A stretch of 50,540 bases of DNA from Mesotaenium endlicherianum (Eukaryota): assembly GCA_009602735.1 (NCBI GenBank), contig WELA01001245.1:1-50540 (forward strand), in the 5' to 3' direction. Below the pieces are notes generated by a model. It was not told where the DNA came from. It did not search any database and saw only the letters and a list, made by a program, of their open reading frames with translations. Positions 2,080-50,540 of the stretch are shown here, piece after piece. The translations under genes and the position numbers were made by a program. Within the stretch, counting starts at the first letter, position 1. Each line of letters begins with the position of its first letter.

Positions 2080-2502
2080 CTCATCATGCACAGAATAATT
2101 AATTTCAGCTGGGCTAAATTTTATAGACTCATACAACACCGGGTGCCAATCTTGCTTTACCTTACCATCCTTTGTGGTTTTGTCAGCAGGCTGCAACAAA
2201 ATAGCACCCATGGCAAAGTCCGAAGCATCAATAACCACCTGCACAGGTTTGCTGGGGTCATACACAGCAAAGACTGGGGCAGAACAGAGAGCATCTTTAA
2301 GGTTCTGGAAGGCAGCTTGCTGGTCTTCCCCCCACACATACCCTATGTCCCTCTTAGTAAGGTCAGTCAGTTTACTGGCCTTTGTAGAAGAATTTTTAAA
2401 TGAATCTCCTATAACAGTTAGCCAATCCAAGGAAGGATCTAACTTCCAAGACAGACTGTGGTACTGGCTAGTCCCTTATGGTCTGGACTTTCTTAGGATC
2501 CA
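2080..2502 (-). pseudogene. pol: Family A pol fragment (RT connection/RNase H); continues at 12335-12410 beyond the family C insertion
   Basis: [13 protein letters not shown]...WHPVLYES. Collinear with the pol at 26090-26590 once 2503-12334 is removed. Confidence 0.85.
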
Positions 2503-3329
2503 TGTCATGATTTATTAAGTCAAAACCAACCTCTACGTGTGTGAATCATCAACCTAGGAAGACCAACTTTGCATTGACTTTACGCATCCATATGTTGACC
2601 TTCTCTAGATTTCCAAGTCACCAAAGTGTAGCGCGTCAAAGCATCTTTTGAATGGCACCGGTTTCGCGTCATTTGGTTAATTATCGAGCGAGATAGACGC
2701 GATCTAGTCCGCACTCCTTTCGGCACCTAGCGGAATCACACCAAACGGCCAACTTGTGACTCAATGCACCCGAAGGTGACAATGTTGACTATTCGTGACC
2801 CCAAGGACCCCTAGCTTTGTGCGCACAAAGCCGCGAGCTCTTTAGACTACATAAGTCTTGCATTTCCATAGTATGAGTGCATCATTGAGGCTATAACTTG
2901 GTGACTGCATCACCTACTCCTAGAGGAAGCTTCCTCAAGTTTCAGATTCACTTTTGAGGCGCTATCTAGCTACATGCATTGGATCCGCTGCATACAACGC
3001 CGGGTTTTCAGAAGTATATGTGCTAGAGATGTCCCTAGAAAAACATCTTTTTAGAAGTCCCATTATGTCAGTTGTAAGCCACAGATATTATCAGTAAAGC
3101 TTACGCTTTTATCTCTTGTGTTTTCAGGACCACTTAGTCTCTCTCTCTTGTGAAGAGCAAGCCTTGCTGGCTTCCACTCACTAGAAGAACTTCACAAGTG
3201 GTGAGCAAAGTCACAGCTTATATCCCCTGCCATAGGACTACTCTTGAAGATCATGATGTGCTTCCAGGGATCTTTTGGGCCAGACTTCATTAGTTGTTTT
3301 CCTACCAGATTACAGTCTTGAGGTGCTCA
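2503..3329 (+). repeat. Family C terminal repeat A1 (827 bp)
   Basis: Direct repeat of 11204-12194, lacking a 13-bp and a ~151-bp segment. The match ends at GAGGTGCTCA. Confidence 0.9.
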
Positions 3330-3401
3330 CTCTGGAGGATACACACTCCTTACTTCTAAAAAGATCTCTCTTTGCCTGCACGCAATTAGAATCTTCAGCG
3401 C

Positions 3402-4844
3402 ATGCCTACCCGTAGTGGGCGTGCTTACCAGCCTTACTACGAAGGGGTTAGTGGAGAAGATTCAGACTCTGATCTCGATACTGTCACTGAACCCTCTGAA
3501 GGGGAACAACCGGCACTTGTGCTTCCTTTCATTGTCCCTGAGCCGTCTTCCCATTGGGCTCACCACGATTCTTGGTATCCCATGACAGGTGACCACGAGG
3601 TCAAGGCTGACAGGTCCTCCCTCTTCCGCTTCAGCGGCAGACCAGGAACCTGTGATCTGGACGACACAATCTCAGAGTTCGAGGCTGAGTTCGTGACCGC
3701 GAGGCTTAAGACGCCCGCGCTCACTAAGCGGGACGTGTTCTATACGCTCATGCGCTATCTCCTCTACGAGGCCCGTGACACATTCCGTGAGAAGGGTGAC
3801 GAGATCTATGCACGCACAGAGCCTGTGGGGGAACCCCCAGTGGAGACCCCCCTCGCTGATCCGGTCAAGGCCTTCTAGGTCGTCCTCAGGAAGGAGTTCC
3901 AGGCCGCGACCGAAGAGAAGATGTACGAGCTGCACCACTTCTTCCGCCGCAAGAATGAGACGATCCGCATGATGTACCGCCGCTTGACGCACCTTCGTCG
4001 AGACGTTGGCACCGTCACTGACCGAGAGGTAGCGGAGATCTTCTTGCGCACCGTAGAGCCACGTTTAAGGGAGCGAGCCATGGCTCCTCTCATCTACCAC
4101 ATCGGCTCCGAGTACTCGCTCGAAGATGCTTACCTCTCAGTCGAGAAGCAGAGCTTGGCCGCAGCACGGAGCAACATTAGCGACCGTATAGGCCTCGCAT
4201 CCACGGGCGTACGCCAGGAGTCTTCGGTGCTGCCACCCACAACGATGCGCCCAGCTCCGGCTCGCCAGCCCCAGCAACAGCAGCAGCCCCAGCGCTCTCA
4301 GCTGTCCCAGCAAACCCAACAGTGCGGGGCTCCGCGTGGCGGCACTTCCATGGCCGCCACAACGAGCAACCCCTGTTGGTCCTGCGGGAAGACGGGCCAC
4401 TCTCGCCAAAACTGCACTATTGCACAGAATGGCAAGCCCGGTGACTGTACCTACTTTGGCAAGGCCGGCCACCTCCAGATCGTATGCCTACAGAATAAGC
4501 GCGACGCCGAGAACGGACGCGCTCGTGACGGCCTTGCGCCAGCAGCAGGACTTCGGGGCGTGCGTAACCCTCGCACGGGTGGACGCCCCTCGATGACTGC
4601 AGCCTCGGCTACAATGGACGCCGCGCTGACCCTCGGAGCCGATTACTACAGTTTTGACGACGTCAGCGACGCCCTCGTAGAGGCCAACGCAGAGATTGCC
4701 AGACTCCGCGGCCTCATCGCCACCGACAGTTACGACGCGTGCGGAGCCCTCTTCGCACGCGTCCCGCTGTCGACGCTCCGGCTCCTGCGCACTTTCATGA
4801 CGCCGACACGTGGCAGCTCCAGAGGCTTGCACCTGGCGCTATAG
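3402..4844 (+). pseudogene. gag: Family C gag with two CCHC zinc knuckles, in-frame TAG at 3876-3878
   Basis: ORFs 3402-3878 and 3921-4844 share a frame. Contains CWSCGKTGHSRQNC and a degenerate CTYFGKAGHLQIVC. Confidence 0.8.
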
Positions 4845-5311
4845 CAGCTCTGCAGCCTCGCACGCGCCCGCCCCACGACAGAGCTACGGCGACCAGCGCG
4901 GCAGACATCTGCGCAGACGCTTCTGCCAGACCTGCGCACTCGGCGCTGATGTCCGTCAGCAGTTGCTGCACTCGTCCGGTTGGGCTTCCAGATGGCAGGC
5001 TGCAGGCGTACGCGGTCCCGCTACCCTGCGTCACAGACGCTGCAGCTCCCGACGCGTCCCTTGACAGTCCGGCACACACGCCAGCACAGCCGCAGGCTCC
5101 AGCAGCCCCTCTGGCCTGTGCCGCCCTGCTGACGCCAGCAAGGCTTTCGGCAGTCTGCGCAGCGACATTTGTCGCAACGGGGTGCGCTCGCCAGCTGAGT
5201 ACCACGACTACAGCACACACGGCTGCAGCGCCCCCCGCTTTGCGCGTTGCCAGCCCAGGCGCAGACCTACGCACCAGCCGGCAACGTCGGAATGATGGCC
5301 CCCTACTGGCA

Positions 5312-5413
5312 GCTGCAAGCAGCAGGATCCAGCAAGCGCTGACACTTGCCGCGTGTCCGGAGCGGCTGCAAGCAGCAGGATCCAGCAAGCGCTGACACTT
5401 GCCGCGTGTCCGG
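5312..5413. repeat. Local tandem duplication, period 53 bp
   Basis: GCTGCAAGCAGCAGGATCCAGCAAGCGCTGACACTTGCCGCGTGTCCGG occurs at 5312-5360 and 5365-5413. Confidence 0.9.
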
Positions 5414-5621
5414 CAGGCCAGGCCGCTCCTGTCGGCAGTCACACGCACACTCGCGCTCTCACTCGTCCGCTCACACCGCACACGGCGGCGCGAGGCTTGC
5501 CGGGCAGCCAGCTACGGGACCGTAGCCCGGCAGCCACAGCAGCAGCTGCGCACGCCAGGAGGCGATCCCGCCCTGGGCTGTCGCCCCCTTCCTACGCCTA
5601 TCTACACCGCACAGCTCGACG

Positions 5622-6559
5622 TGTGACGTTTCTGCTTTTCAAGAGGATCTTTCCTCGGTATTCAAGGAATATTTAATTCAAGTGGGAGGAAAATCTGTAT
5701 ACTTGTGGAAATTGACGAACACTCGAAAGAGCGAAAATGAAAACTAACGTAGAATGTGTGCTTGTGAGAGTTGCACTCACAATGACTCTGCAGGCATTTA
5801 TACCTGCACAACATGAGGCACTGGAGTGCTTCGAGTCACCACCTAGGGCACTGGTTCATGTTCAACAAAAACGGTCGAAGGGACGTGTCCCATTCGGCCG
5901 AATGCTCGAAACGCGCAGTTGGCCGTTTGGAGACTTTTCGACGGTTTCCAAAAAACCGTTTCGCGCCAAACGGGCGTTTTCGCGTTCTCGCGACTTGGAA
6001 AGTCGCGATTGATCGCGGAGTCGCGTACACATGCTTTCGTCATGAACCGGTAGTTTATAAAGCTACTTTGGCCGATCGGTTAGGTGTGAACGTTTCAAAC
6101 GAAAGTCGCGAGTTCGAATCCGCTCGGATGCAAAGCGACATTGCATATTTCGTTTCGTTTGACTTTACGACTGTTTGTTCGTATTAATGATATGACAGTT
6201 TCTTCGTATCACAACTAGTCGTAATCCGAAATCTGTGATTGTCCATTATTCGTAATAATGACAATCAAAATAACTTAATCAAGCAATGATTAATTAAATT
6301 ATCATCTCATAATTATTCGAAGTAACTTTATGAATAATTATGTCGTACTTTTGCGAAGTAGTCGAATTACGTTACAACGCTTTTTGCAATAGTATCTCGG
6401 TCGTTTCGCCAAACGACAGGGAATTAATCGGCATACGTGTGTGGCAAATAATTCAATGTGATGCGATCATTTATCAAATAACTTATGATAAATAGTATAA
6501 CGTATATTAGCTAATTGGGAAAACGTCCCAAATACGCCTAAAAAGCTCAAATCGTTACA
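5622..6559. mobile_element. Family D solo LTR (938 bp) inserted just upstream of DNMT motif I
   Basis: TGTGACG...CGTTACA with 5-bp TSD CGACG (5617-5621 / 6560-6564). AT-rich, homologous to 17371-18285. Removing it rejoins ...YTAQLD to ERPGGIVLVELFA in frame. Confidence 0.92.
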
Positions 6560-6564
6560 CGACG

Positions 6565-7601
6565 AGCGTCCCGGCGGCATTGTCCTTGTCGAGCTCTTCG
6601 CCGTCATTGCGACAGGACTGGTGGCCACCCTGCAGGCTGGCATCCCCGTACGTCGGTACGTCTACGTCGACCCCGATGGCGAGGCGCAGCAGGTCGCCTG
6701 CAGGCAGATGGCCTTATGCCACGAGCGTTTCCCAGACCTCTTCCCTGAGAATGCCTTCTACCGCGCCCAGACTGACTGGCCCATGGACATCCGCGACATT
6801 ACCGCCGAGCACATCACGCGCCTCGGGCCCATCGACCTCATCATTGCTGGCTGGGAGTGCCAGGGCTTCTCTATTGCGGGACGGGGCAACGCGCTCAATG
6901 ACCCGCGTACGGCCTTGTTCTGGCACCTGCTCCGCGTCCTCAACATGGTTGAGGACCGCCAGCCGCCGCACACGCTCGCCTGGGTGTTGGAGAACGTGGC
7001 TGTCCGCCACGATTCTCGGCCCAACGTCAGCGCCAACTTTTCCCTTTGCAGCAGCTACGTCGGTCGTGAGGCAGTCATCGACGCCGCTCAAATTGGTTCC
7101 TTCGCGCATCGTGTGCGCGCCTACTTCACCAACCTGGCCATGCCAGGCACACTTGAGGCATTGGCGGCCGCACATCCACGCCACACGCGCAACGTTGACT
7201 CCATCCTCAACGTGGCGCGCCTGGCCCAGCGCGTGGTCGCCCTTCCGCATCCTTCTCAGGCCCAGTGTGAGGTCCTCCGCGACGTCACGCGGGCGCTTCC
7301 TACGTTCGTGAGTCGCTACGACAGCGCGGCCTACATGGGCGACCAGCGCGGCATGATCATTGACCTCGAGACTGGCATGTTCCAACGACCCCGTGCCGTG
7401 GAGATGGAACGTGCGATGGGCTTCCCTGTGCACCTCACACAGGTGGACGGCATCACCGAGGTCAACCGCGTGCGTCTCCTTGGCCAGGCTATCGATGCCA
7501 ACGTCTTGACGTGGCTTCTCCTGCAGACACAGGCCTTGACTCCCCTTTACGCCCAGGCTCGTCATCCTGAGATGGACCAGTCCTATGACGCCATGGATTG
7601 A
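6565..7601 (+). pseudogene. DNA (cytosine-5)-methyltransferase domain of the family C polyprotein
   Basis: Canonical motif order: I VLVELFA(V)IATG, II YVYVD, III DIRDI, IV IIAGWECQGFS, VI WVLENV, VIII HRVRAYFTN, IX ERAMGFP, X LLGQAID. Confidence 0.9.
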
Positions 7602-9437
7602 GATTCCGACGGCGACGGGCGCGCCCCGCCTGGTACGACCTGGCATTCCCAGCGCGAGGGCCCAGCTTCCCAGCAGCCGCCTGCCCCTTGTCATGGTCCT
7701 CGTTTTGGTTCGCTGGGGGGGGGCAGAAGGAGACAGGAGTCCTCACAGCGACCCGGGGAGTTTTGTATCCCGTTTCTTTTTCCACGCTCTCCGCCGCTGA
7801 CAAGTGGTGCAGGGCAGATGGCAGCTGCTGCCAAGAAGAGGGCACCCGAGGCAGGCCGAGCGCAGCCAGCTGCAGGACAGGTGACGCCTGCAGCCCCACA
7901 GATCACGCCAGCAGCAGGGCAGGAGGCGCCAGCCGCAGCGCAGGAGCCACCACCAGCTGTCCCTACTTGGAAGCTGGGGGGGACTCTCACTCGGGCACAG
8001 GCTGCTCAGCTAACGGCATTGCTGGATGCACGGCGCAGCCCCAGCTTTGCCAGCGGCATGCACGATCTTGGGCGCTACACAGGCGACATTATGAGGATAC
8101 CCCTCCAGACAGACGTGCCCATCTTCCAGAAGCGCTATCGCTACAGCCGCTTTGAGGACGACCTGATCAGCACGCAGACAGGCAAGCTAGAGGAGTGTCA
8201 GCTCATTCGTGAGTCTGCCTCCACCTACGCTGCGCCCACAGTCATGCCAGCTAAGAATGACGCCTTAGGCAACTGGTCTGAGAAGAGGATGTGCGGTGAC
8301 TATCATAAGCTTAACGAGGTCACTGAGCAGGACAGATACCCTATGCCGACCCCTGACGAGATCTTCGACGACATCGACGCTTGTACTTGGTTCTCGGTGC
8401 TGGATTTGAGGCAGGGCTTCAACCAGATACCCATTGCGGAGGAGGACCAGCATAAGATGACTTTTTGGGGATCGCAGCGTCTCTACGAGTGGAGGGTTAT
8501 GCCCTTCGGCTTGAAGAACGCTCCTGCCACCTTCCAGCGAGTCATGGATAAGGAGCTGAGAGGGCTCTCCTTTGCCCGGTGCTACATCAATGACGTGCTT
8601 GTCTTCAGTGAGACGTTTGAGGAGCATGTGGCGCATATCACTACAGTCCTGGACCGCTTGGAGGCCGTTGGGCTCAAGTGTCATCCAGGCAAGTGCACCT
8701 TTGGGACCCGGGAGGTGGAGTACCTCGGGCATCTTCTGTCTTCCAGTGGTTTGGCTCCTCAGCTGGCCAAGATCTTGGCCATCACAGGCATCCCGCCGCC
8801 AACCGGCCTCTCGCAGTTGAGGTCCTTCCTTGGCATCGCCAACTACTATCGCCGCTTTGTGCCTGGGTTTAGCGAGCTGGCCAAGCCGCTCAACGACTTG
8901 CTACGCAAGGGCGTTGCTTATGTATGGGGACTAGAGCAGCAGACGACGTTTGACAAGCTCAAGAAGCTGTTGGTGAGCGCCCCACTACTACGGCGGCCCG
9001 ACTATCAGAAGCCCTTCATCCTCCACACCGACTGGTCGCAGGCAGGGCTTGGAGCGGTGCTGGTGCAGGAGCATGACGGCTTTGAGCATGTGGTGGCGTA
9101 CGCCAACCTCAGCAACAACCTCGCCGAGGGCAACCACGGCTCCTATGAGGGGGAGTGCCTGGCAGCGGTGTGGGCGATTGTGCATTTCAGGCACTATCTC
9201 TACGGCACCCACTTCCGCTTGGTCACCGACTATCAGCCAATCAAGTGGCTCATGACGTCGGAGCGCCTGACAGGCAAGTACGCACGATGGGCACTCATCT
9301 TGCAGGACTACACCTTTGACGTGCACCATCGTCCAGGGTCGACAAACCTGGACGCTGACGGCCTCAGCCGCAACCCGCTGCCCTCTTCGCGAGACCTCAT
9401 GGTAGCCCGCCACGATGAGGATGAGCCAGTGGCCTAG
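7602..9437 (+). pseudogene. pol: Family C reverse transcriptase and RNase H
   Basis: KRMCGDY, LDLRQGFNQI, MPFGLKNAPATFQ, YIND (degenerate YIDD), LHTDWS, YEGECLA, DADGLSR. Same frame as the DNMT, with 72 open codons between TGA 7599-7601 and ATG 7818. Confidence 0.93.
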
Positions 9438-11052
9438 CACGCAGCGGCATTCCTGGCCTTCACCGTTGACGGCGACGTGCGGCCCGCAGGGCTCACTAGC
9501 CTAGAAATGGTAACTGTCACCACTCGACGACTAGCCTTGGCAGCAGCTGAGGAGCAGGACAGCTGGCAGCGCGGGCCCGAGGACATGTGGGACGACACCC
9601 CGGTGCTACAGTACGTCACGGCCAAGGAGTTGGTCCCAGGCATTAGTGCGCGCGAGCGTGACCGCATGCTCAAGCGTAGCCGAGATTTCGTCTTCATGGA
9701 GGGGCGCGAGTGATGGCGGACGGCTCTGTCCTGGTGGTCCCTGAGCTCGCTATACGCAGCCAGCTGGTGCGACGTGTGCACGAGACGCTTGGACACTTTG
9801 GTGTTAAGCGCACTCTCAGCCTCCTCCAGGCTGAGTACTGGTGGCACGGCATGACTAAGGCGCCGATGTCGTCAGAAACTGCACACTTTGCGACCGGGTG
9901 CGCTCGGGCTTCACAGCCCGCACCGTTGCTCTCAGCCCTCTCCCTATTCAGGGGCTGTTCTACAGGTGGTCGCTCAACTTGGCTGGGGAGCTGCCCAAGT
10001 CTCGCCAAGGCAACCTCTATGTCTTGGTGATGATTGAGCACATGTCCAAGTGGATTGAGCTTGTGCCGTTGCCCAGCAAGGCCAGTGAGGGGATTGCCCA
10101 GGCTTTCCTCAATCACGTCCTTAGCCGCTTTGGCGGCTGCGCTGAGGTCCTCACCAACCAAGGCAAAGAGTTCCAGGGCAGCTTTCAAAAGCTGCTAGAG
10201 CGCTTGATGATCGACCACCGCACCACCTCCCGCGACCATCCCCAGGCTGACGGCCTCGCCGAACGCATGGTGCAGACCGTCAAGCTTGGGCTGCGGAAGT
10301 ACTGCCTGGCCCACGACAGCACCCACTGGGACGACGCCCTCCCATGGTTGGCTATGGGGTACAGGTTCAGTAAGCAGGCCTCCTTGGCCTCGCATTCTCC
10401 CTACTTCCTTCTCTACGGCCGACAGCCAGTTCTGCCCGCAGCAGCCAGGACCGTGGCCGAGAACGTTCTGGACTTGGACAGTCTCGAGACGTGGAGCGCT
10501 CTTATCGGGCAACGTGCACAGCTCTTTTGGCGCCTGATGCCCATGGCCATGGACAACCTCAGCATTGCTCAGCACCGCGACACACTGAGGTATGCCATGA
10601 CCTGTGGAGGAGCCTATCGCCCGCGAGTGTTGCAGTTCTCCGCAAAAGACTTCGTGTACATGCGACGCCAGACGAAGAACACCCTCGACACCAGCAGCTC
10701 GCCCGTCATCCTGCGCGTCACACGTGTCTTGGCGTTAGGCGTTTTGGAGCTGGAAGGCGCAGATGGCCGTCTTCACAAGGACCACACAAAGAATTGTGGA
10801 CCATGCCACCTTCCTAACCTTGACATGCAGGTTCGTCCCCGCGACGCGAGGCCGCCCAAGGACTGGGCGTGCCAGATTTGCTACAGACCCGGCCAGGAGG
10901 CCAGCATGCTGCTCTGCGACAGCTGCAACCTCGGCTTCCACATCGGTTGCCTTGACCAGCCGCTGGCTCGCGTGCCAGCTGGCGACTAGTTTTGTAGCGA
11001 CTGCACTGCTTTAGCTCTAGACAGCGATCACAGCCCATCAGCTGGTGGCTGA
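9438..11052 (+). pseudogene. pol: Family C integrase (HHCC plus degenerate DDE) with C-terminal PHD finger; frameshifted and with stops
   Basis: VHETLGHFGVKRT, WSLNLAG, VLTNQG, HPQADGLAERMV, then CQIC...LLCDSCNLGFHIGCLDQPLARVPAGD*FCSDC (C4HC3). The frame closes at TGA 11050-11052. Confidence 0.9.
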
Positions 11053-11065
11053 GAGCTGGGAGGGG
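11051..11065 (+). promoter_or_regulatory. Polypurine tract of family C
   Basis: GAGAGCTGGGAGGGG lies directly after the pol stop and directly before repeat B1. Confidence 0.75.
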
Positions 11066-11201
11066 AATTAAAACATTTGACGCGTGACTATCGTTTGGCT
11101 ATAAAGCCACATGTATTATAGACCTCATTGCAGCAAAGCCTGCTCGCACATTATGCATTGCTTGTGTCGTTGATACGCACCCGACCTCCTACCGCACGAC
11201 A
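11066..11201 (+). repeat. Family C terminal repeat B1 (136 bp)
   Basis: AATTAAAACATTTGAC...CCGCACGACA, near-identical to 12195-12330. Confidence 0.92.
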
Positions 11202-11203
11202 AC

Positions 11204-12194
11204 TGTCATGATTTATTAAGTCGAGGTTGACGTACAAAACCAAGCTCTACGTGTGTGAACCATCAACCTAGGAAGACCAACTTTGCATCGACTTTACACA
11301 TCCATATGTTGACCCTCTCTAGATTTCCGAGTCACCAAAGTGTAGCGCGTCGAAGCATCTTCCGAATGGCACCGGTTTCGCGTCATTTGGTTAATTATCG
11401 AGCGAGATAGACGCGATCTAGTCCGCACTCCTTTCGGCACCTAGCGGAATCACACCAAACGGCCAACTTGTGACTCAATGCACCCAAAGGTGACAATGTT
11501 GACTATTCGTGACCCCAAGGACCCCTAGCTTTGTGCGCACAAATCCGCGAGCCCTTTAGACTACATAAGTCTTGCATTTCCATAGTATAAGTGCATCATT
11601 GAGGCTATAACGTGGTGACTGCATCACCTACTCCTAGAGGAAGCTTCCTCAAGTTTCAGATTCACTTTTGAGGCGCTATCTAGGTAGAACTACCCAAGGT
11701 AAGCTCCACCAATGAGAGACACTTAGCATATTCTACGTGCTTTGCTTTGATTGGTTTGAGTTATGTTTAGCCTATAGGAGTGCTAGTACATGCCTTGTAC
11801 ACATTAGTGGACATAGGAGAGCCTCCTAGAGTGACTACATGCATTGGATCCGCCGCATACGACGCCGGGTTTTTAGGAGTATATGTGCTAGAGATGTCCT
11901 TAGAGGAACATCTTTTTAGAAGTCCCTTTATGCCAGTTGTAAGCCACAAAAATTATCAGTAGAGCTTACACTTTTATCTCTTGTGTTTTCAGGACCACTT
12001 AGTCTCTCTCTCTTGTGAAGAGCAAGCCTTGCTGGCTTCCACTCACTAGAAGAACTTCACAAGTGGTGAGCAAAGTCACAGCTTATATCCCCTGCCATAG
12101 GACTACTCTTGAAGATCATGATGTGCTTCTAGTGATCTTTTGGGCCAGACTTCATTAGTTGTTTCCCTACCAGATTACAATCTTGAGGTGCTCA
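11204..12194 (+). repeat. Family C terminal repeat A2 (991 bp)
   Basis: TGTCATGATTTATTAAG...GAGGTGCTCA, separated from B1 by the dinucleotide AC. Confidence 0.92.
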
Positions 12195-12330
12195 AATTAA
12201 GACATTTGACGCGTGACTATCGTTTGGCTATAAAGCCACATGTATTATAGACTTCATTGCAGCAAAGCCTGCTTGCACATTATGCATTGCTTGTGTTGTT
12301 GATACGCACCCGACCTCCTACCGCACGACA
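12195..12330 (+). repeat. Family C terminal repeat B2 (136 bp)
   Basis: AATTAAGACATTTGAC...CCGCACGACA, followed by TSD TCCA. Confidence 0.92.
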
Positions 12331-12650
12331 TCCACACTGATGCCTTCCTCACTTACAACGTGGCAATACTTTTAAAAAAAAAAATCACACTTGCTCATTT
12401 TAGCATATAACTGAGCCCACCACTCGGAAGGAGAATAGGTACCAGCACATCAATAAATCACTTGACTCACCCTGCACACACATTCATTTGTTTATTCTCA
12501 TCGCAAGGCAGCTCCGTTAACTCCTAGTAATCACCTTGTAAGGTAAAAGGGAACGCACCTATCATATCGATACAAACTTACTTCTCTTTCTGCAACTCCT
12601 GCGACAAGGATTGAGATCCTACTTACTTGTGCCCTGGTTACATGTGCAGG

Positions 12651-14563: not shown

Positions 14564-16112
14564 TGTAATGAATCAGTATATTGGTAGTTATAGTATTCAT
14601 TTATGTATAATAGTTAATTAAGTTCAGCCTGCTGAACTTCAGTCAATATTCAGTCTGCTGGACTTCAAATACTTGTCATGATTTATTGAGTTGAAGTCAT
14701 TGCACGTACCCGAGCTACAAGCGTGTGAGCAATCAACTTCGGACGGGCATTTGCCTCTTTGCATTTGTGTGATTTAGTTTATTAAGTTGCTATGCTCGCA
14801 TGCTTAGGGGATAGATGCCACGTGACAAGTCAACACTTGTCACGCGCGCCAGACCTACTAGATGCGCAAGGCACAGGTCAAGTATCTCGTCCAATACTGG
14901 ACGGTGGTACTTGACTTTCGCTCATAGCCACTACGGGCCACTAGGACCCAAGTAACAACCGTTACTTAGGCAACAACACCGAGGGGGGCCACGTGGAGCC
15001 ACCAGGAGGTGGCGGGCTCCAGCGTTTGGCCCAAACACCCCCAGCTGCTCGACACCCAAGCGACGATAGCCACTGAGGCCACGTGGCGCCACCGGAAGGT
15101 GGCGGGTACCTTCAAGTGGTCCAGGGGCACTTAATGCCCGTCACTTGGTCCCAGGCACTCCTAAGTGCACGACACTCAAGTGGCAAGGTCACCAGAGGCA
15201 CCCTGGGCCACCGACCGACAGCTGCAGCCCGTCGGTTGGCCCAAGCGCAGCTGACCAACGTGTGCTCAGCCGACAGGAACTGTCACAGCCTGCAGAATTA
15301 CCACAGTTTAGCAGGCAACCATCCGATTGCACGAACATAAGTGTGCAAGCTTATCTTACAAGCTTAGCATGTGCTAAAGTGAGCTCGACCTATTACAAGC
15401 ATTTAGCATATTCTAGCATCTCGCTTTTGATTGGATTGAGTGATAACTAGCCTATTGGAGCGCGAGCACAATAGGTACATGTGTGTGTGTGTGTAACGGT
15501 AGATCTTAGATGAAGACTACATGCATTGAATCTGCGCCTAATCTGCCGGGTTGCCAGGATTATAATTACTAGAGATGTCCCTAGATAGACATCTTTTTAA
15601 AAGTTCCATTATGCCAGTTGTAAGTCACAGAGATTGTCAGTGAAGCTTACACTTTTATCTCTTGTGATTTCAGGACCACTTAGTCTCTCTCTTGTGAGAA
15701 GCAAGCCTTGCTGGCTTCCAGTCACTTGAAGAACTTCACAAGTGGTGAGCAAAGTCACAGCTTATACCCTCTGCCATAGGACTACTCTTGAAGATCATGA
15801 TGTGCTTCCAGTGATCTTTTGGGCCAAACTTCATTAGTTGTTTTCCTACCAGATTACAGTCTTGAGGTGCTCACTCTGGAGAGTACACACTCTTTGATAA
15901 AAGTACTCAACACTTGCCTCTCTTTTTGTCGAATACGCCACATGTATTATAGCCTTTATTGCAGCAAAGCCCGTTGACTTGTTTCGTCCTGCGTATGACA
16001 CTGATGCACGCCCACGCTCTTAGCGCACGACTTACTTATCAGTTTAACGACTCAGCCGAGAGCAGCAGGCTGAAGTCAACTTAGGTCAGCTTGCTGACAC
16101 ATTCTATGTCAG
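14564..16112 (+). mobile_element. Family A 3' LTR, truncated and interrupted by a family C-like solo repeat
   Basis: TGTAATGAATC after PPT AAGTTGGGGGGAT. LTR sequence spans 14564-14673 and resumes at 16037 to ~16110. Confidence 0.85.
14674..16032 (+). mobile_element. Solo A+B terminal repeat of a family C relative (1359 bp)
   Basis: TGTCATGATTTATTGAG...GCGCACGAC(T) with 4-bp TSD TACT (14670-14673 / 16033-16036). 15400-15873 is strongly similar to A2, and 15937-16031 is similar to B. Confidence 0.85.
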
Positions 16113-17370: not shown

Positions 17371-18285
17371 TGTAACGTTTTTGCTGAGGATCTGTTCTCA
17401 ATATTCAAGGAATATTTAAATGAAGTGGAAAGAAAATCTATATAGTTGTGCAAATTGACAAATCCTCGAGAAAGCAAAAATGAAAACTAACGTAGACTGT
17501 GTGCTTGTGAGAGTTGCATCCACAATGACTCTGCAAGTATTTATACCTGCACGACGCTAGGCACTGGAGTGCTTCGAGTCACCACCTAGGGCAGTGATTC
17601 ATGTCAACAAAAACAGGCGAAGGGGTACGACCCATTTCGGCTGAATGCTCGAAACGCGCTGTTTGGCCATTTGGAGACTTTTCGACGATTTCTGAAAAAC
17701 CGTTTCGCGCCAAATGGGCGTTTTCGCGTTCTTGCGACTTTCCTAAAAGTCGCGACTGTTCGCGAAGACGCGTACAGATGCTTTTTGTAATGACCCGGTA
17801 GTTATAAAAACTACTTCGCCAATCGAGTAGGTGTGAACATTTCAAATGACAGGTCGCGGGTTCGAATCCGCTTGGATGCAAAGTCGCTTTGCATATTATG
17901 TGTCATTTGATTTTTACGACTGTTTGTTCGCATCAACGACTGGTCGTAAATCCAAAATCTGTGACTGTGCATTATCCGAAATAATGACAATCAAAATAAA
18001 TTAATCAAACAATGATTTATTAAGTTATTATCTCATGATTAATCAAAGTAAACTTATGAATAATTATGTCGTACTTTTGCGAAGTAGTCGAATTACGTTA
18101 CGACGCTTTTTGCAATAGTATCTCGGTCGTTCTGCCAATCGATCGGGAATTAATCAGCACATGCGTGTGGCAAATAATTCATTGTGATGCAATCATTTAT
18201 CAAATAATGTATGATAAATAATATAACAAAATTTAGGTAATCGAGAAAACGTCCCAAATACGCCTAAAAAGCTCGGATCGTTACA
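17371..18285. mobile_element. Family D solo LTR (915 bp)
   Basis: TGTAACG...CGTTACA with 5-bp TSD CAGGG (17366-17370 / 18286-18290). Homologous to 5622-6559. Confidence 0.92.
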
Positions 18286-18292
18286 CAGGGTG

Positions 18293-33944: not shown

Positions 33945-35375
33945 TTACTGACTGTTGCTGTCACTTAAAGGCTGGTCTTTCCTCTCGACCTTTGGGAGGT
34001 GCTTAACTGGACACTACTCTCTGAGGTGACCCAGCTGCTGGCAATGGAAGCAAACAGATTTTGCTGAGGCTGGTCTCGGCTTAGTCCTACCACCACCTCT
34101 TCCATAGCCACCTCGAGAGTAACCACCTCTCCATCTAGACTGTATAGCATTATACTCATACTCGTACTCATCACCCTGATCATCCTCAGCCTGGTCTCCT
34201 TCAATTGCATTGTAGGACCCGTGGGGCTTTTTGACAATCTTAGACACCAAAGCATTACTCTGGTGCTTGTGATTGAACTGCTGCTGATCCCAGGCATCAG
34301 CGTCCTGGATCAAGTCAGCCAGTTTCTCATATTTCTTTTCAGCGAAGTGACCAGAGACTTCGGATTTCAAACCATACCTGAAGTATGCTATCATACACCG
34401 CTCTGGCAAGTCTGGCTGCTTCATCATGTTCTCCTGGAACTTTTGAGCAAACTCAGCAACTGAAGTGGTCTGCTTCAGTGTCAAGGAGATCATTGCATAG
34501 ATAGCTTTCTCCTGCTGATTGATGACATCAAACTTCTCATGCAGTTTCTCGACAAACTCTACCCAAGTAGGGTCATCGAGTTGCTGAAACTTACGCTCTC
34601 CTTCCCAATACAGCCACCAGTCTGCTGCACTGCCTTTCAGTAGAGCATCAGTATGCCCAACCTTCTCGTAATCCTGCAATTCTAGGTAGTTCTCCAGCCA
34701 CTGCTCAACATCAGCGAGAAGCTTGATCAGGTTATACTTTTTGTTTCCCTCAGGATCATAGTCCTGGGGAGGTTTCGGCTTAGGCTTACTAGGCCCTCTG
34801 CCACCACCACCAGTGGTTTGAGAACCCAGTTGGTCTCTGTCCCGCAGCAGAGACGATATGATTCTTTTGTCCTCCTGTTGGGACTGATACATGCTCGTCA
34901 TTTGCGATTGCATTTGCGCAAGTAATGCTCCCAAATCCACACTCTGAGGTGGGATTCTAGCAAATGCAGCAGTAGCAGTGGCATCCACTCGCTGAGTAGT
35001 GTCCTCAACAGTTCCTCTCGCTCCTGCAGCAGCAATTTTTGCCGCATTCAACCGGTCACAAATTTGACCTAGAGGCACATTAAGTTGTACAGCAGGAGGT
35101 GGGTTCAAAACATTGGCCCTTGCTGCCATACGTGTTCAACAGTGCGCTCGTCCGCTGGCTGTCCTTCCCTCCATTCTGTATCTTCAGCAGCTTTTGCTAA
35201 TCGTTCGGCTTCTAGTCTAAGTCTTTCCTCCTCAGCCTGCTGTGTTGCGACTGCAACAATAGCAGCTGCCTCATCTGCAACCTCTCTAGCTGCAGTATCT
35301 GCCACTGCTTCAGAATAGGTACGGGTTCCCGCTACATGGCTTTCAGCCTGATTTTTGACATTCTCGTTATCCTTG
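33945..35375 (-). pseudogene. gag: Family A gag, 5'-truncated and frameshifted
   Basis: ORFs 35105-35395 and 34014-35129 closely match 28089-29564. Contains CFHCQQLGH. Confidence 0.88.
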
Positions 35376-35382
35376 TTGCGCC

Positions 35383-46677: not shown

Positions 46678-49600
46678 TCACTCTGCCGCGTAAGACTCTC
46701 GAGAGGGAAGCGCAGCAGCAACGGCGGCAGCCGCAGCGGCAGCGGCAGCGGCTGCAGCGGCTGCAGCGCCAGCGGGGAGAAGCTCGGCGATGGGGGCGTT
46801 GCAGAAGAAGCAGCGCTGGTGATTCAGCAGGTGGCGCGACACGCAGCGCCGGCACGAGCGGTGCTTGCACGGTGCAAACTCCGTGTCGATTGCACACGCG
46901 TAGCAGATGCTGCACATCTCCTGCCCCCCCTCCTCGTCGTCCTCGTCCGCCTCCGCAGCTCCCTCGGCTCCCTTGCCACCTGCACATACGGCATCGCGCT
47001 GGGGGTCACGTCAGGCAGGCAGGCATGCACACACGTCGCACTTGATACAGGTGATATTCACAGAGCAAGGGTCCAGGGGCATGCTTCCTCTCTGCTGCCC
47101 AGGCGCGTAGCCGCAGTTGCCTTCTGTGCCTCGAGTGCGCCCGATCTGCACTGCTTTGAAGTGTGCCCTCAGACTACTTCCTCTTCTGACTCATTCTGCG
47201 TCTCCCTGTCATTCCGTATGCGGCCAACAACACCCACAACTGCGCTGACGTAGAGGGCAGGGGGGGGTACGCCCACAATACTTCTCCCTTGAGTAAGCCT
47301 GGGCCCTTGCCTCGTCCTCCTCTGCGCGGCATGTGCCAGAGCCCCCCGTCCCAAGTCCCACGCCGTCTGCGACGGCGCTTCCGCCGCTCTGAATGGCTAC
47401 AGCCATGGCTGACTACTACTTTTTATAGGACTCAGGCGAGAAGCCTTCGATGGCGCAGCAAGAAATCTCCCTCCTCTTCCATCCCGTCACCCATCAGGAA
47501 GCATCAACTGAGTCCCGAGCACGCACCCCATCCAGCAGGCGAGGAACACGCAGAGAGCGTCTGAACGCGGCGCAGGGGTCAACTCCACGGGATGAGAGGG
47601 GGAGGGGGGCGGGGCGGGGGCGGGGGCGGGACAGCTAGCGGGCTCACCTGGCGAGCTCTGGCTGGCCACCGCGCGCCTGGCTGTCGCCTCCGCGTCCTGC
47701 GCTCGCGCCACCTCGGCCTTGAGGCGCGTCACAAACTGCTTCAGGAGCGGCAGGCGCTGCAGCGAGGCGTCCCCTCGGAACACCTCCGTCTGGCACCCGC
47801 AGCCAGCCACTCCCCACGGCGCCCAAACATCTGAGCCAAGTCCTAAGCAACGTCCTACACCAAGTCTTACACAACGCAAAAGTCCTACGCAAGTCCTACA
47901 CAAAGTCCTACACAAAGTCCTACGCAAAGTCCCACGCAGAGTCCTACACACGTGTCTCCACAAAGGCCTCCGGAAAGGCCTACGCAGATTTTTTGCTCAC
48001 GGTCCCATGCAAAGTGTCGTGCACAAAGATCTCAAGCCAAGTCTCAAGCCATCGTCATCCACTGGAAGCCCACAAAATCCCCCGCGTGCACAGAACTGCC
48101 GGAATGCCCCGCCCACTTCCATTGCCAGACTCGTAAACTCGCACACTCGCAAGCGTACAGACTCACACACACACACACACACAGCTCACAGCCTCACGAG
48201 GTTGCACAACTTGCAGCCCCCCGCGAGCGATGGGTGCGTGCGGGGACAAGCAGCCGACCTTTCAGCCCAGCCCAGCCCGGCCCAGTCCGGCCCTTGAGGG
48301 GGAAACAGCACGCGGGAGCAGGCACGGTGCGCCAGCTGGACAGGCCGAACCTGCTGACTTGCCAGAACGCATCGAGAGCGCGCGACCTGGAGCATATCCG
48401 TATGCGCCCCTGCCTGGTTAGACCGAGCTAGCCAAAGCGCACGCCGGAGCCCGTTGCAGCAGCAGCAGACGTAAAAGAGGAGGAAAGGACAGGGGGCTGG
48501 CACCCCCGAGCCCCAAACATCAGACCCCAGACCCTAATTCCAAATTCCTGATGCCTGCGCTGCTCTCCAGCCGCAGACGACGCCGCCACAGAGCGGCAAT
48601 CGTAAGAGCCACACATCCCACCTCCCATCCCGTCCCGTCCAAAGATTAACACCGCGCAAGAGCCCCTACCCTTACATTTCGTGCTGGCGCCGCGCAAGGA
48701 GAGAGAGCCACAAGCCACAAGTCGTCAAGAACAAGCCTCGCCCCACTTCGGACTCCCCGAGCCTTGTCCCCCCAGGCCCCCCCAACTCAAACACCCCCAT
48801 GACCCAGCACCCGCAACCCTCATCCTATCCCGATGACTGAACCGGCAGAGCACAACCCGCAACCCGCAACCCGCAACCCGGAACCGGCAACCGCCAACCC
48901 TAAGCAGGCGGGACAGGCGGGGCAGGACGGGCGGCGGCAGTGGCGCACCCAGTTGAAGTTGACGAGGAAGTTGAAGCTGGCCAGGCACGCGGGCGACGAG
49001 TCCACGCGCGCCATGGCCCGCGCAAACTCGTCCGGCAGCGAGGCCGCCCCTCCCTCGTCGGCGCCGCCACTCACGCCGCTCCCACCGCCGTTGCTGCCGC
49101 CGGCGTCGCCGCTGTTGTGGCTGCCGCTGCCCCCTGCCCCCTCGGCCTCGACCTCCACCTCCGCCTCCTGCTCCTCCGTGCCAGCTGTCAGGTTGATGAT
49201 GATGCCCACGAGCGGCGCCAGGATCTGCGCGCGGTTCACCTTTTCCAGCGGCTGTGCGTGCACGCGAGAGACTCTGCTCCCTCTCTCTCCCCGCCCGCCC
49301 GCCCGCCCCCATTCGCAGGACTTGACGACAGTTAGCGAAGTGCCCTACAGCTCGTGGAGGGAAAGGGGGTGACCTTCTGCAGCAGCTGACGCCGTGCGCG
49401 CGCGCATCGGCCAACAGATGGAGGGCAGAGAAGAGCGCGTAAGGTGGGCGCAGCACAGAAGTGCACAGTGGCATCTCCTGGCATCTGGCAAACACGGCCC
49501 TTTGGCAAACGCTTCGGGCTTCCGGAAGGTTCCTACTGCGCTAAGGCAAGCGCTGACTGTACAGTGACATATGCTTATACATGAAATGATAAAAATTTAT

Positions 49601-50118
49601 ATGTGGATATGTACATATATGCGTTGCCTCATGCGGGACCAGTTTCTGATTATTTCGAGGCAACATGGTCAGGCAGCCTCTTCCCTCTTCCCTCTTCGCA
49701 CGACAGGACTCTGAAGAGCGAGCAGGAGGGCCAGGCTGGGAATTGAGGGCAGCGATAGCAGCAGCAGCAGCAGCAATAGCATCACCACAACCACCAGCAG
49801 CAGCGGCGGCGGCGGCGGCAGCAGGAGCGGCAGGGCAGGGAGGACATGCCACCTGTCGAAGATGCGCGCGTCGGGGCCGGCCGTGGTGTGGTTGAGCACA
49901 AAGTGCAGGAGCTCGCAGAGGCGCATCAGGTTCATCTCCTCCGCCGCCGCCGCCGCCTCCGCGCGCGCTCCGTCTCCGGCTCCGGCTCCAGCTCCAGGGC
50001 CATGGCGGCGGTGCAGGAAGGCGTGCGGCAAGCGCAGCGAGAAGAACTCGAGGATGCGCTCCAGGTTGCACGACAGCTCAAACATGATGCCGCACTTGCG
50101 CTGCTGCAGCTCCGCCAC
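46678..50118 (-). CDS. RKP: Second copy of the RKP/KPC1-like 3' exons (49853-50118, 48949-49273, 47648-47789, 46678-46979); upstream exons lie beyond the window
   Basis: Identical translation to 40964-44404, offset by 5714. Confidence 0.85.
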
Positions 50119-50540
50119 CTGGCGCCGCGCCGCAGCGTCGTGCCACGAGGGCAGGGGACGGGGCGGGGGAGGAGGGGTCAAGGGGGAGGGAAGGAGGGGG
50201 CTTTGCAGCCCTTATGCTGCTGCGGCTGATCTCGTGGGATGGAAGGGAGAGGCTGCCAGCATTAGTTGTGTACAGAAAAGGAGGGTCTGACGTCAATTCA
50301 GGAGAGGGCCAGGGCCAGGGGGGCTAGGATGTACGTGCCGCTGGCATCTGCACGGGTCCTGTTATGTGCGCGTGCGTCTCTACGTGTGCGTACGCACGTG
50401 CATGCGTGCATGTGTATGTGCGCGTGTGCGCATGCGCATGTCGTGTCTGGGCCCGAGAGAGGGAAGGGGAGGGCAGGGGGGGGCTTGAGCGCCATCGGCG
50501 CATGGCTGGCTGGCTGGCTGCATGCATGCATGGCGGGGGG

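Follow-up and report, generated by a model that had tools for sequence, protein, structure and literature searches.

How can a retrotransposon perpetuate itself if the ends it presents to the genome lie inside the long terminal repeats (LTRs) that its reverse transcriptase (RT) makes? The question is raised by a Ty3/Gypsy element at positions 2503-12330 of a contig of Mesotaenium endlicherianum (WELA01001245.1, assembly GCA_009602735.1, forward strand), the entire 50,540 nt of which we call the window. Two direct repeats, A and B, are split around its coding body in the order A1-body-PPT-B1-AC-A2-B2, where PPT is the polypurine tract and AC a dinucleotide spacer. The copy is a decayed member of a widespread Ty3/Gypsy family with a PHD-finger integrase, and both of its genomic ends fall within the terminal repeat predicted for its reverse transcript. 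Cutting at a palindrome internal to that repeat is very probable. To the fuller reading, in which covalently closed circles would be the molecules cut and the element's own integrase the enzyme that cuts them, we give a rough probability of 0.7 on the strength of sequence comparison.

On re-alignment, A1 (2503-3329) and A2 are identical in 796 of 827 ungapped columns (96.3%), A1 being without two stretches of 13 and 151 nt that are present in A2, and B1 and B2 agree at 132 of 136 positions. The element begins with TGTCATG and ends with CACGACA, the same motifs meet inside it as CACGACA-AC-TGTCATG, and B1 begins at the very edge of the PPT (GGGG/AATT). Since the repeat pairs have diverged by 3-4%, mainly through transitions, they are not an assembly duplication. 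The insertion target is another retroelement, two further copies of which (~26.5 kb and ~32.4 kb) pass through a single uninterrupted TCCA, and the empty-site joint is also present in DNA contigs of the same organism; the 4-bp target-site duplication (TSD) TCCA is therefore real. These contigs derive from four runs of one sample, possibly the source of the window itself; they show other copies only as short contigs, and their summed depths stand for presence, not for copy number. A sequence-only reading of the window had already proposed the coordinates, the order of the repeats, the TG/CA ends and the TSD, and all of these hold with one amendment: the start of A1 and its alignment stand, but its 3' end does not, because the deepest A-to-B joint listed among the contigs is 3351>11066, so that A reaches 3351 and is 22 nt longer than A2 here. 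The splitting of A and B in the window is confirmed.

It could still be a one-off rearrangement, a tandem insertion or an assembly error of a conventional element with A+B LTRs, given that no long read crosses the locus and that a solo A'B' a short distance downstream, with TG...C(T) ends and a TSD, resembles a conventional solo LTR. Relatives speak to this. An alignment search gave 88 loci, 80 in metagenomes (the best 80 of 329 confirmed) and 8 in prokaryote assemblies, which we take to be eukaryotic contamination; a scan of viral contigs found no relative. Indeed, L081-L086, in GTDB assemblies, are eukaryote-type retrotransposons inside contigs of prokaryote metagenome-assembled genomes, likely through binning contamination. 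Nine of the 88 loci stand outside the structure counts: six with fewer than 10 nt downstream, L023, which is interrupted before the PPT, and the distant L087 and L088 (26%). Two families, M1 and M2, both distinct from that of the window, make up 56 metagenome loci, and their B has no evident likeness to the window's B, judged by eye, except at the termini. In all 56, B directly follows the G-run; the order PPT-TG-A and an upstream A followed by B were each found in none. Sorted by flank, these loci represent 48 distinct sites: 24 with the A-body-B-NN-A-B layout (BAB), 22 with A-body-B (B-only), one cut after B-A and one too short. Among the 18 sites with both ends, the 4-bp TSD is exact in nine, carries one transition in four and is unclear or absent in five, and matches occur in both forms. 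Also, B-att-A-B, where att denotes the attachment-like junction, is seen directly in L082, and L045 is the B-only form of the L083 family.

The predicted constant start of B at the PPT is thus observed, as is A...B-NN-A-B with 4-bp TSDs at independent loci, here the unrelated sites of M1 and M2; conventional A+B LTRs, for which we looked, are present in 0 of 56 loci. BAB as the family layout stands, but the second common form, A-body-B, had been missed, and it accounts for 22 of 47 informative sites. The BAB sites, the 56 loci without a conventional one among them and the att junction in 38 contigs of the same organism refute a one-off or assembly-error origin at the level of the family. Against the explanation as a whole stand L082 and the 24 separate BAB sites of M1 and M2; in addition, a split layout has been reported in Klebsormidium nitens (PMC5890265), and a solo AB is expected from recombination of A1 with A2 as well. 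We regard it as barely credible.

The two junctions within the repeats behave differently. M1 and M2 yield 25 distinct att junctions, and in every one of them the spacer between CA and TG is 2 nt long (AC 8, GC 6, GT 5, AT 3, other 3), AC, GT and AT being C>T products of GC. In the organism of the window, 38 contigs read G at 11202 in place of A (depth 60,313 of 62,513) and the spacer is GC in nearly all contigs, which gives the palindrome GACAGCTGTC; the junction is therefore family-wide and normally of this form. Exact GACAGCTGTC occurs 12 times in 923,640 nt of loci, always at the internal-junction position. A junction CA-GC-TG or CA-GT-TG follows a G-run at a distance of 9-184 nt in 13 of 23 other loci (12 of them distant), with variants such as GTCAGCTGTC and GGCAGCTGCC. 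The A2/B2 join, in contrast, falls into eight classes in 22 M1 copies (+AT in 7, exact in 6, deletion or other in 4, and five singletons), and several A-to-B joints among the contigs show that it varies in M. endlicherianum too, as had been predicted. The additions +AT and +ATT match the first letters of the primer-binding site (PBS) described below. A fixed spacer beside a variable join is the pattern expected if the palindrome is passed on under selection for its use by integrase and every cycle makes its own join. As a separate observation on right ends, the match to B stops 13-15 nt early in L030, L032, L039 and L061. Two of these, L030 and L039, end at the first member of a pair of GTCACGACA-like repeats, possibly because of slippage or because a second half-site was used.

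A join copied from a template should be constant, and this bears on another explanation, in which replication is of the PAT, Ngaro or DIRS type: the whole BAB end would be copied from RNA, and a tyrosine recombinase acting in trans would insert the circle. The repeat order A-coding-B-A-B is that of SymbioDIRS, and also that of PAT and Ngaro, for which a circular intermediate has been proposed. The family nonetheless differs from all of them by its DDE integrase, its PPT, its TG/CA ends, its 4-bp TSDs and its variable join. Also, no tyrosine recombinase was found. Pfam profiles run on all 52 window open reading frames (ORFs) of at least 70 aa matched DNA_methylase, RVT_1, RNase H, Integrase_H2C2, rve and PHD, with a weak zinc knuckle, and gave no match to PF00589, and 36 long ORFs, a selection among the 74 listed for 10 relatives, likewise showed no tyrosine recombinase, in agreement with what the letters alone had suggested. 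Replication of this type is largely refuted, and we hold it to be very improbable. What the element does have is the RT-RNase H-integrase order, the Ty3-like RT and the DDE integrase of Ty3/Gypsy, along with TG...CA ends and a short TSD; in L081 the integrase keeps its D, D and E, its closest solved integrases are those of Ty3 and foamy virus, and the closest solved RT is that of Ty3. It departs from conventional Ty3/Gypsy elements in that the PPT adjoins B, the PBS follows A and no locus of 56 has the conventional layout.

Where reverse transcription would begin and end can be read from a stretch directly after A that is complementary, over 14 of 14 nt, to one within A1, 30 nt past a TATA-like box. 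The two are paired in both the minimum-free-energy and the centroid structures, with a z of -1.31 for the whole fold, which is not significant. For the sequence past A, the best complement is found 31-32 nt downstream of TATAA in 14 of 16 M1 loci, and L081 and L005 have complements of 13 and 16 nt whose letters differ from those of the window. A tRNA PBS starting from the TGG at 3333 was considered, but by eye the 14-nt self-complement was preferred. Complementarity and TATA spacing agree with Tf1-type self-priming; the transcript start is a prediction, and RNA coverage shows only a rise near 11930 in one of three runs (6-13% of each run was read, with 90-339 reads per run). Likewise, in Tf1/Tf2-sushi elements and plant Tcn1 the 5' end of the RNA is complementary to a PBS just past U5 (PMC5341516, PMC6317226), but these have conventional LTRs and mostly chromodomains, where a PHD finger marks the window family. 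The survey by Neumann located elements by two similar LTRs with LTR-FINDER (PMC6317226), and so would likely miss this family. Because the PBS follows A and the PPT precedes B, the standard scheme would give an RT-made LTR of B-GC-A at both ends, which supports the B+A LTR of the sequence-only reading; the genomic ends would then lie inside the LTR, and the A/B join could come only from joined ends of complementary DNA (cDNA).

We propose the following cycle. Transcription is predicted to start about 30 nt past the TATA box in A1 and to proceed through B1 and the palindrome into A2. The 5' end of this RNA would prime the minus strand at the PBS after A, as in Tf1, and the PPT would prime the plus strand at B, yielding a linear cDNA B-GC-A-body-B-GC-A whose ends would not be TG/CA att sites. 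These ends would be united in a 2-LTR circle, for which non-homologous end joining is the simplest route, with a new and imprecise A/B join each time. At one palindrome, integrase would then nick each strand past CA; the resulting 2-nt 5' overhangs would resemble those of processed retroviral ends, and insertion with a 4-bp TSD would give A-body-B-GC-A-B. A-body-B would result from a 1-LTR circle or from linear cDNA cut twice, once in each palindrome; it is a predicted dead end for replication because it is without the A2 copy of R, and BAB is the sole form predicted to replicate.

For the cut itself there are precedents among retroviruses. Foamy virus integrase cuts the palindromic 2-LTR junction past CA on both strands in vitro, leaving 5'-AT overhangs (PMC1180852), and 2-LTR circles of human immunodeficiency virus (HIV) have been reported as an integration reserve (PMC4372172). 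In foamy virus and HIV-1, the palindrome arises by the joining of LTR ends, integrase normally acts on linear DNA and the LTRs of proviruses are ordinary (PMC1180852, PMC4372172). In the window family, by contrast, the palindrome is a fixed part of the LTR, the predicted cDNA ends are no att sites and the element would have no route other than internal cutting. Might a host or other nuclease open the palindrome, leaving the integrase merely to join the ends? CAGCTG is a simple palindrome, and cleavage by the family's integrase is a prediction. Still, the genomic ends lie exactly past CA on both strands, which is the position of 3' processing by integrase, and the junction cut is one that a retroviral integrase performs in vitro (PMC1180852); we find a foreign nuclease distinctly improbable.

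Internal cutting could also dispense with a covalent circle, if linear cDNAs were ligated head-to-tail, or if RT jumped between cDNA ends, and integrase excised A-body-B-A-B from the multimer. The layout, the variability of the scar and the extra letters derived from the PBS would all be the same. L081, a closed contig (127-bp end overlap) in which B-att-A continues into the body, is also what a tandem array would give, but it may equally be a collapsed repeat, and no tandem A-body-B-A-body array is seen at any unique-flank locus among the 48 sites. Moreover, unintegrated cDNA usually joins intramolecularly (see also PMC4372172). Multimers as the substrate are in our opinion unlikely. The initial proposal of integration from a circle is supported by the layout, the PPT, the join and the PBS, but these do not single out a covalent circle, since joined linear DNA leaves the same traces.

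Several points weigh against circles opened by integrase. Circles, cleavage and transcript ends are predicted, none having been observed. No RNA read lies over position 11202 in the three runs, at the depth given above, and the RNA reads resemble read-through of solo elements. The self-primer match is weak in both M2 loci and in 2 of 16 M1 loci, and 5 of the 18 two-ended sites are without a clear TSD. The palindrome was not seen in 10 of the 23 other loci (short contigs, interrupted copies or B-only), and among the 13 that have it a second B is seen only in L082. B-only copies could be deletions by B1 x B2 recombination after insertion. In a tree of 43 M1 copies the BAB and B-only forms are intermixed (14 changes versus 14.2-14.4 when shuffled), and the terminal branches of 22 BAB and 19 B-only copies do not differ (Mann-Whitney p=0.37); this tree is mostly poorly resolved, with strong support on 3 of 40 branches, and for that reason counts as only weak evidence. 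Finally, no long read or contig among the records examined spans the window locus.

We regard the element as a variant of Ty3/Gypsy whose layout has already been noted once in print and whose proposed mechanism, with an internal att site, was not found in the literature searched. The sequence-only reading knew of no such description for integrase-type elements, without excluding one; the searches agree for the mechanism but not for the layout: KnitGypsy-Dnmt3 of K. nitens has DIRS-like repeats and Gypsy domains (Fig. 4c legend; de Mendoza et al., 2018, PMC5890265). Both have a C5 DNA methyltransferase (DNMT) inside the Gypsy polyprotein region and A-coding-B-A-B repeats. The window DNMT is of the C5 class, with no Dnmt3 type assigned, and the K. 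nitens protein to which the window integrase is 54% identical, P0016, is not tied to a KnitGypsy-Dnmt3 copy. The accessible text of that paper, figures aside, has no TSD, PPT, PBS, palindrome, A-body-B form or mechanism (PMC5890265), and a 2026 preprint, in its accessible part, mentions streptophyte Gypsy-DNMT3 without repeat structure. Literature listings gave no other description of split repeats or LTRs in Gypsy, of KnitGypsy, or of permuted or circular Gypsy elements of bryophytes and algae, subscription papers and Repbase being outside this coverage. Among DNA transposons, IS3 and IS30 are alike in that a DDE enzyme integrates from abutting inverted ends across a 2-4 nt spacer; they differ in that their junction is made by the transposase and is not inherited via RNA. 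Relatives of the window integrase occur in Klebsormidium, Calypogeia, Marchantia and Sphagnum, and in a protein labelled Chrzof, presumably Chromochloris. We lean slightly towards a clade of LTR retrotransposons extending across the green lineage in which the att site has moved inside the LTR, end-joined 2-LTR circles are obligatory for every replicating copy and directly cut cDNA yields only the sterile A-body-B. Elsewhere, 2-LTR circles are dead ends or side products.

Table 1. Features of the split-repeat element and of its immediate surroundings in the window.
Feature	Position	Strand	Basis
Left TSD TCCA	2499-2502		Empty site in two host copies and contigs
A1, left end TGTCATG; 3' part of inferred RT-made LTR (distal U3, R, U5)	2503-3351	+	Alignment; contig joint 3351>11066
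TATA-like box, 30 nt before predicted self-primer	3015-3019	+	TATAA in other copies; 3019 T>A in all contigs aligned
Predicted transcript 5' end and self-primer	3045-3058	+	14/14 nt complement of 3352-3365
Predicted self-priming PBS, marking U5 end	3352-3365	+	Complementarity; same arrangement, other letters, in relatives
gag-like ORF, one stop, weak zinc knuckle	3390-4844	+	zf-CCHC E=0.008, under curated cut-off
Nested unrelated solo LTR, 938 bp, TG...CA, 5-bp TSD CGACG	5622-6559		Second copy ~17372-18286; contig joints across
C5 DNMT ORF, domain from ~6576, ending at in-frame TGA	6501-7601	+	Pfam DNA_methylase E=3.9e-12
RT and RNase H, catalytic motif decayed, terminal stop	7602-9437	+	Pfam
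DDE integrase (H2C2 zinc domain, rve core) and PHD finger; frameshifted, catalytic motifs decayed	9680-10989	+	Pfam; comparison
PPT (G-run), adjoining B1	11058-11065	+	11061 A>G in other copies; same place in 56/56 loci
B1, 5' part of inferred RT-made LTR, ending CACGACA	11066-11201	+	Alignment
Internal att-like palindrome GACA-[AC]-TGTC, 2-nt spacer 11202-11203 (GC in most copies)	11198-11207		Copy comparison
A2, second A copy, 22 nt short at 3' end	11204-12194	+	Alignment, contig joints
A2/B2 join, where the U5 end meets the U3 start; presumed scar of end joining	12194-12195	+	Varies among copies (same organism; family M1)
B2, right genomic end CACGACA	12195-12330	+	Alignment
Right TSD TCCA	12331-12334		Alignment
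Solo A'B', sibling subfamily, TG...C(T) ends, 4-bp TSD TACT, keeping 22-nt A tail	14674-16032	+	Alignment

The features of the window (Table 1) are those of a decayed copy, with stops, frameshifts, degenerate catalytic motifs in both RT and integrase, and a nested solo LTR; the solo A'B' is what recombination between A1 and A2 of a BAB copy should leave behind. No aspartic protease was detected in the window, and the Asp_protease_2 matches in L081 and L005 are weak and below the cut-off. A lone in-frame stop divides the upstream ORF from the RT-integrase ORF, with the same frame on both sides, in the window (TGA, 7599-7601) and, as TAG, in L081 (3489-3491), L005 (5083-5085) and L034 (4857-4859), possibly a case of programmed read-through. 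The window methyltransferase ORF is 37% identical to ORF1 of L005, and a search with the DNMT returned three unnamed matches only. Its domain precedes RT in the window, L081 and L005, but L067 (797-6814) and L072 (699-6800) have it in the interval from RNase H to integrase, where L035 has a G-patch match; the domain has thus been relocated or acquired more than once.

Around the element, fragments and solo LTRs of other LTR retroelements are densely nested (1-2500 and 13000-35400). At least one neighbouring family is conventional, with TG...CA ends and 5-bp TSDs (the nested solo LTR and its second copy), against the 4-bp TSD of the split family. Further along, a tandem array with a 160-bp period and copies 97-99% identical occupies 35223-36162, and 39114-44826 is duplicated in tandem at 44828-50540 (5,713 bp, 100% identical, with a single N between them at 44827), a duplication probably created by the assembly.

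For retroviruses, it has been debated over decades whether integration can truly start from circular cDNA. In the sources considered here, integration from circles is treated as contested or auxiliary (PMC1180852, PMC4372172), whereas here the copies left in genomes across an entire clade fit cleavage at an internal junction as the normal route, on a 10-bp substrate that is open to testing in vitro. Tools that rely on two matching LTRs would miss split-repeat elements or misplace their boundaries, and the divergence of A and B would give them different dates, so catalogues of algal and bryophyte repeats likely under-count the clade. If the proposed cycle is true, the survival of these elements would be tied to the end joining of their hosts.

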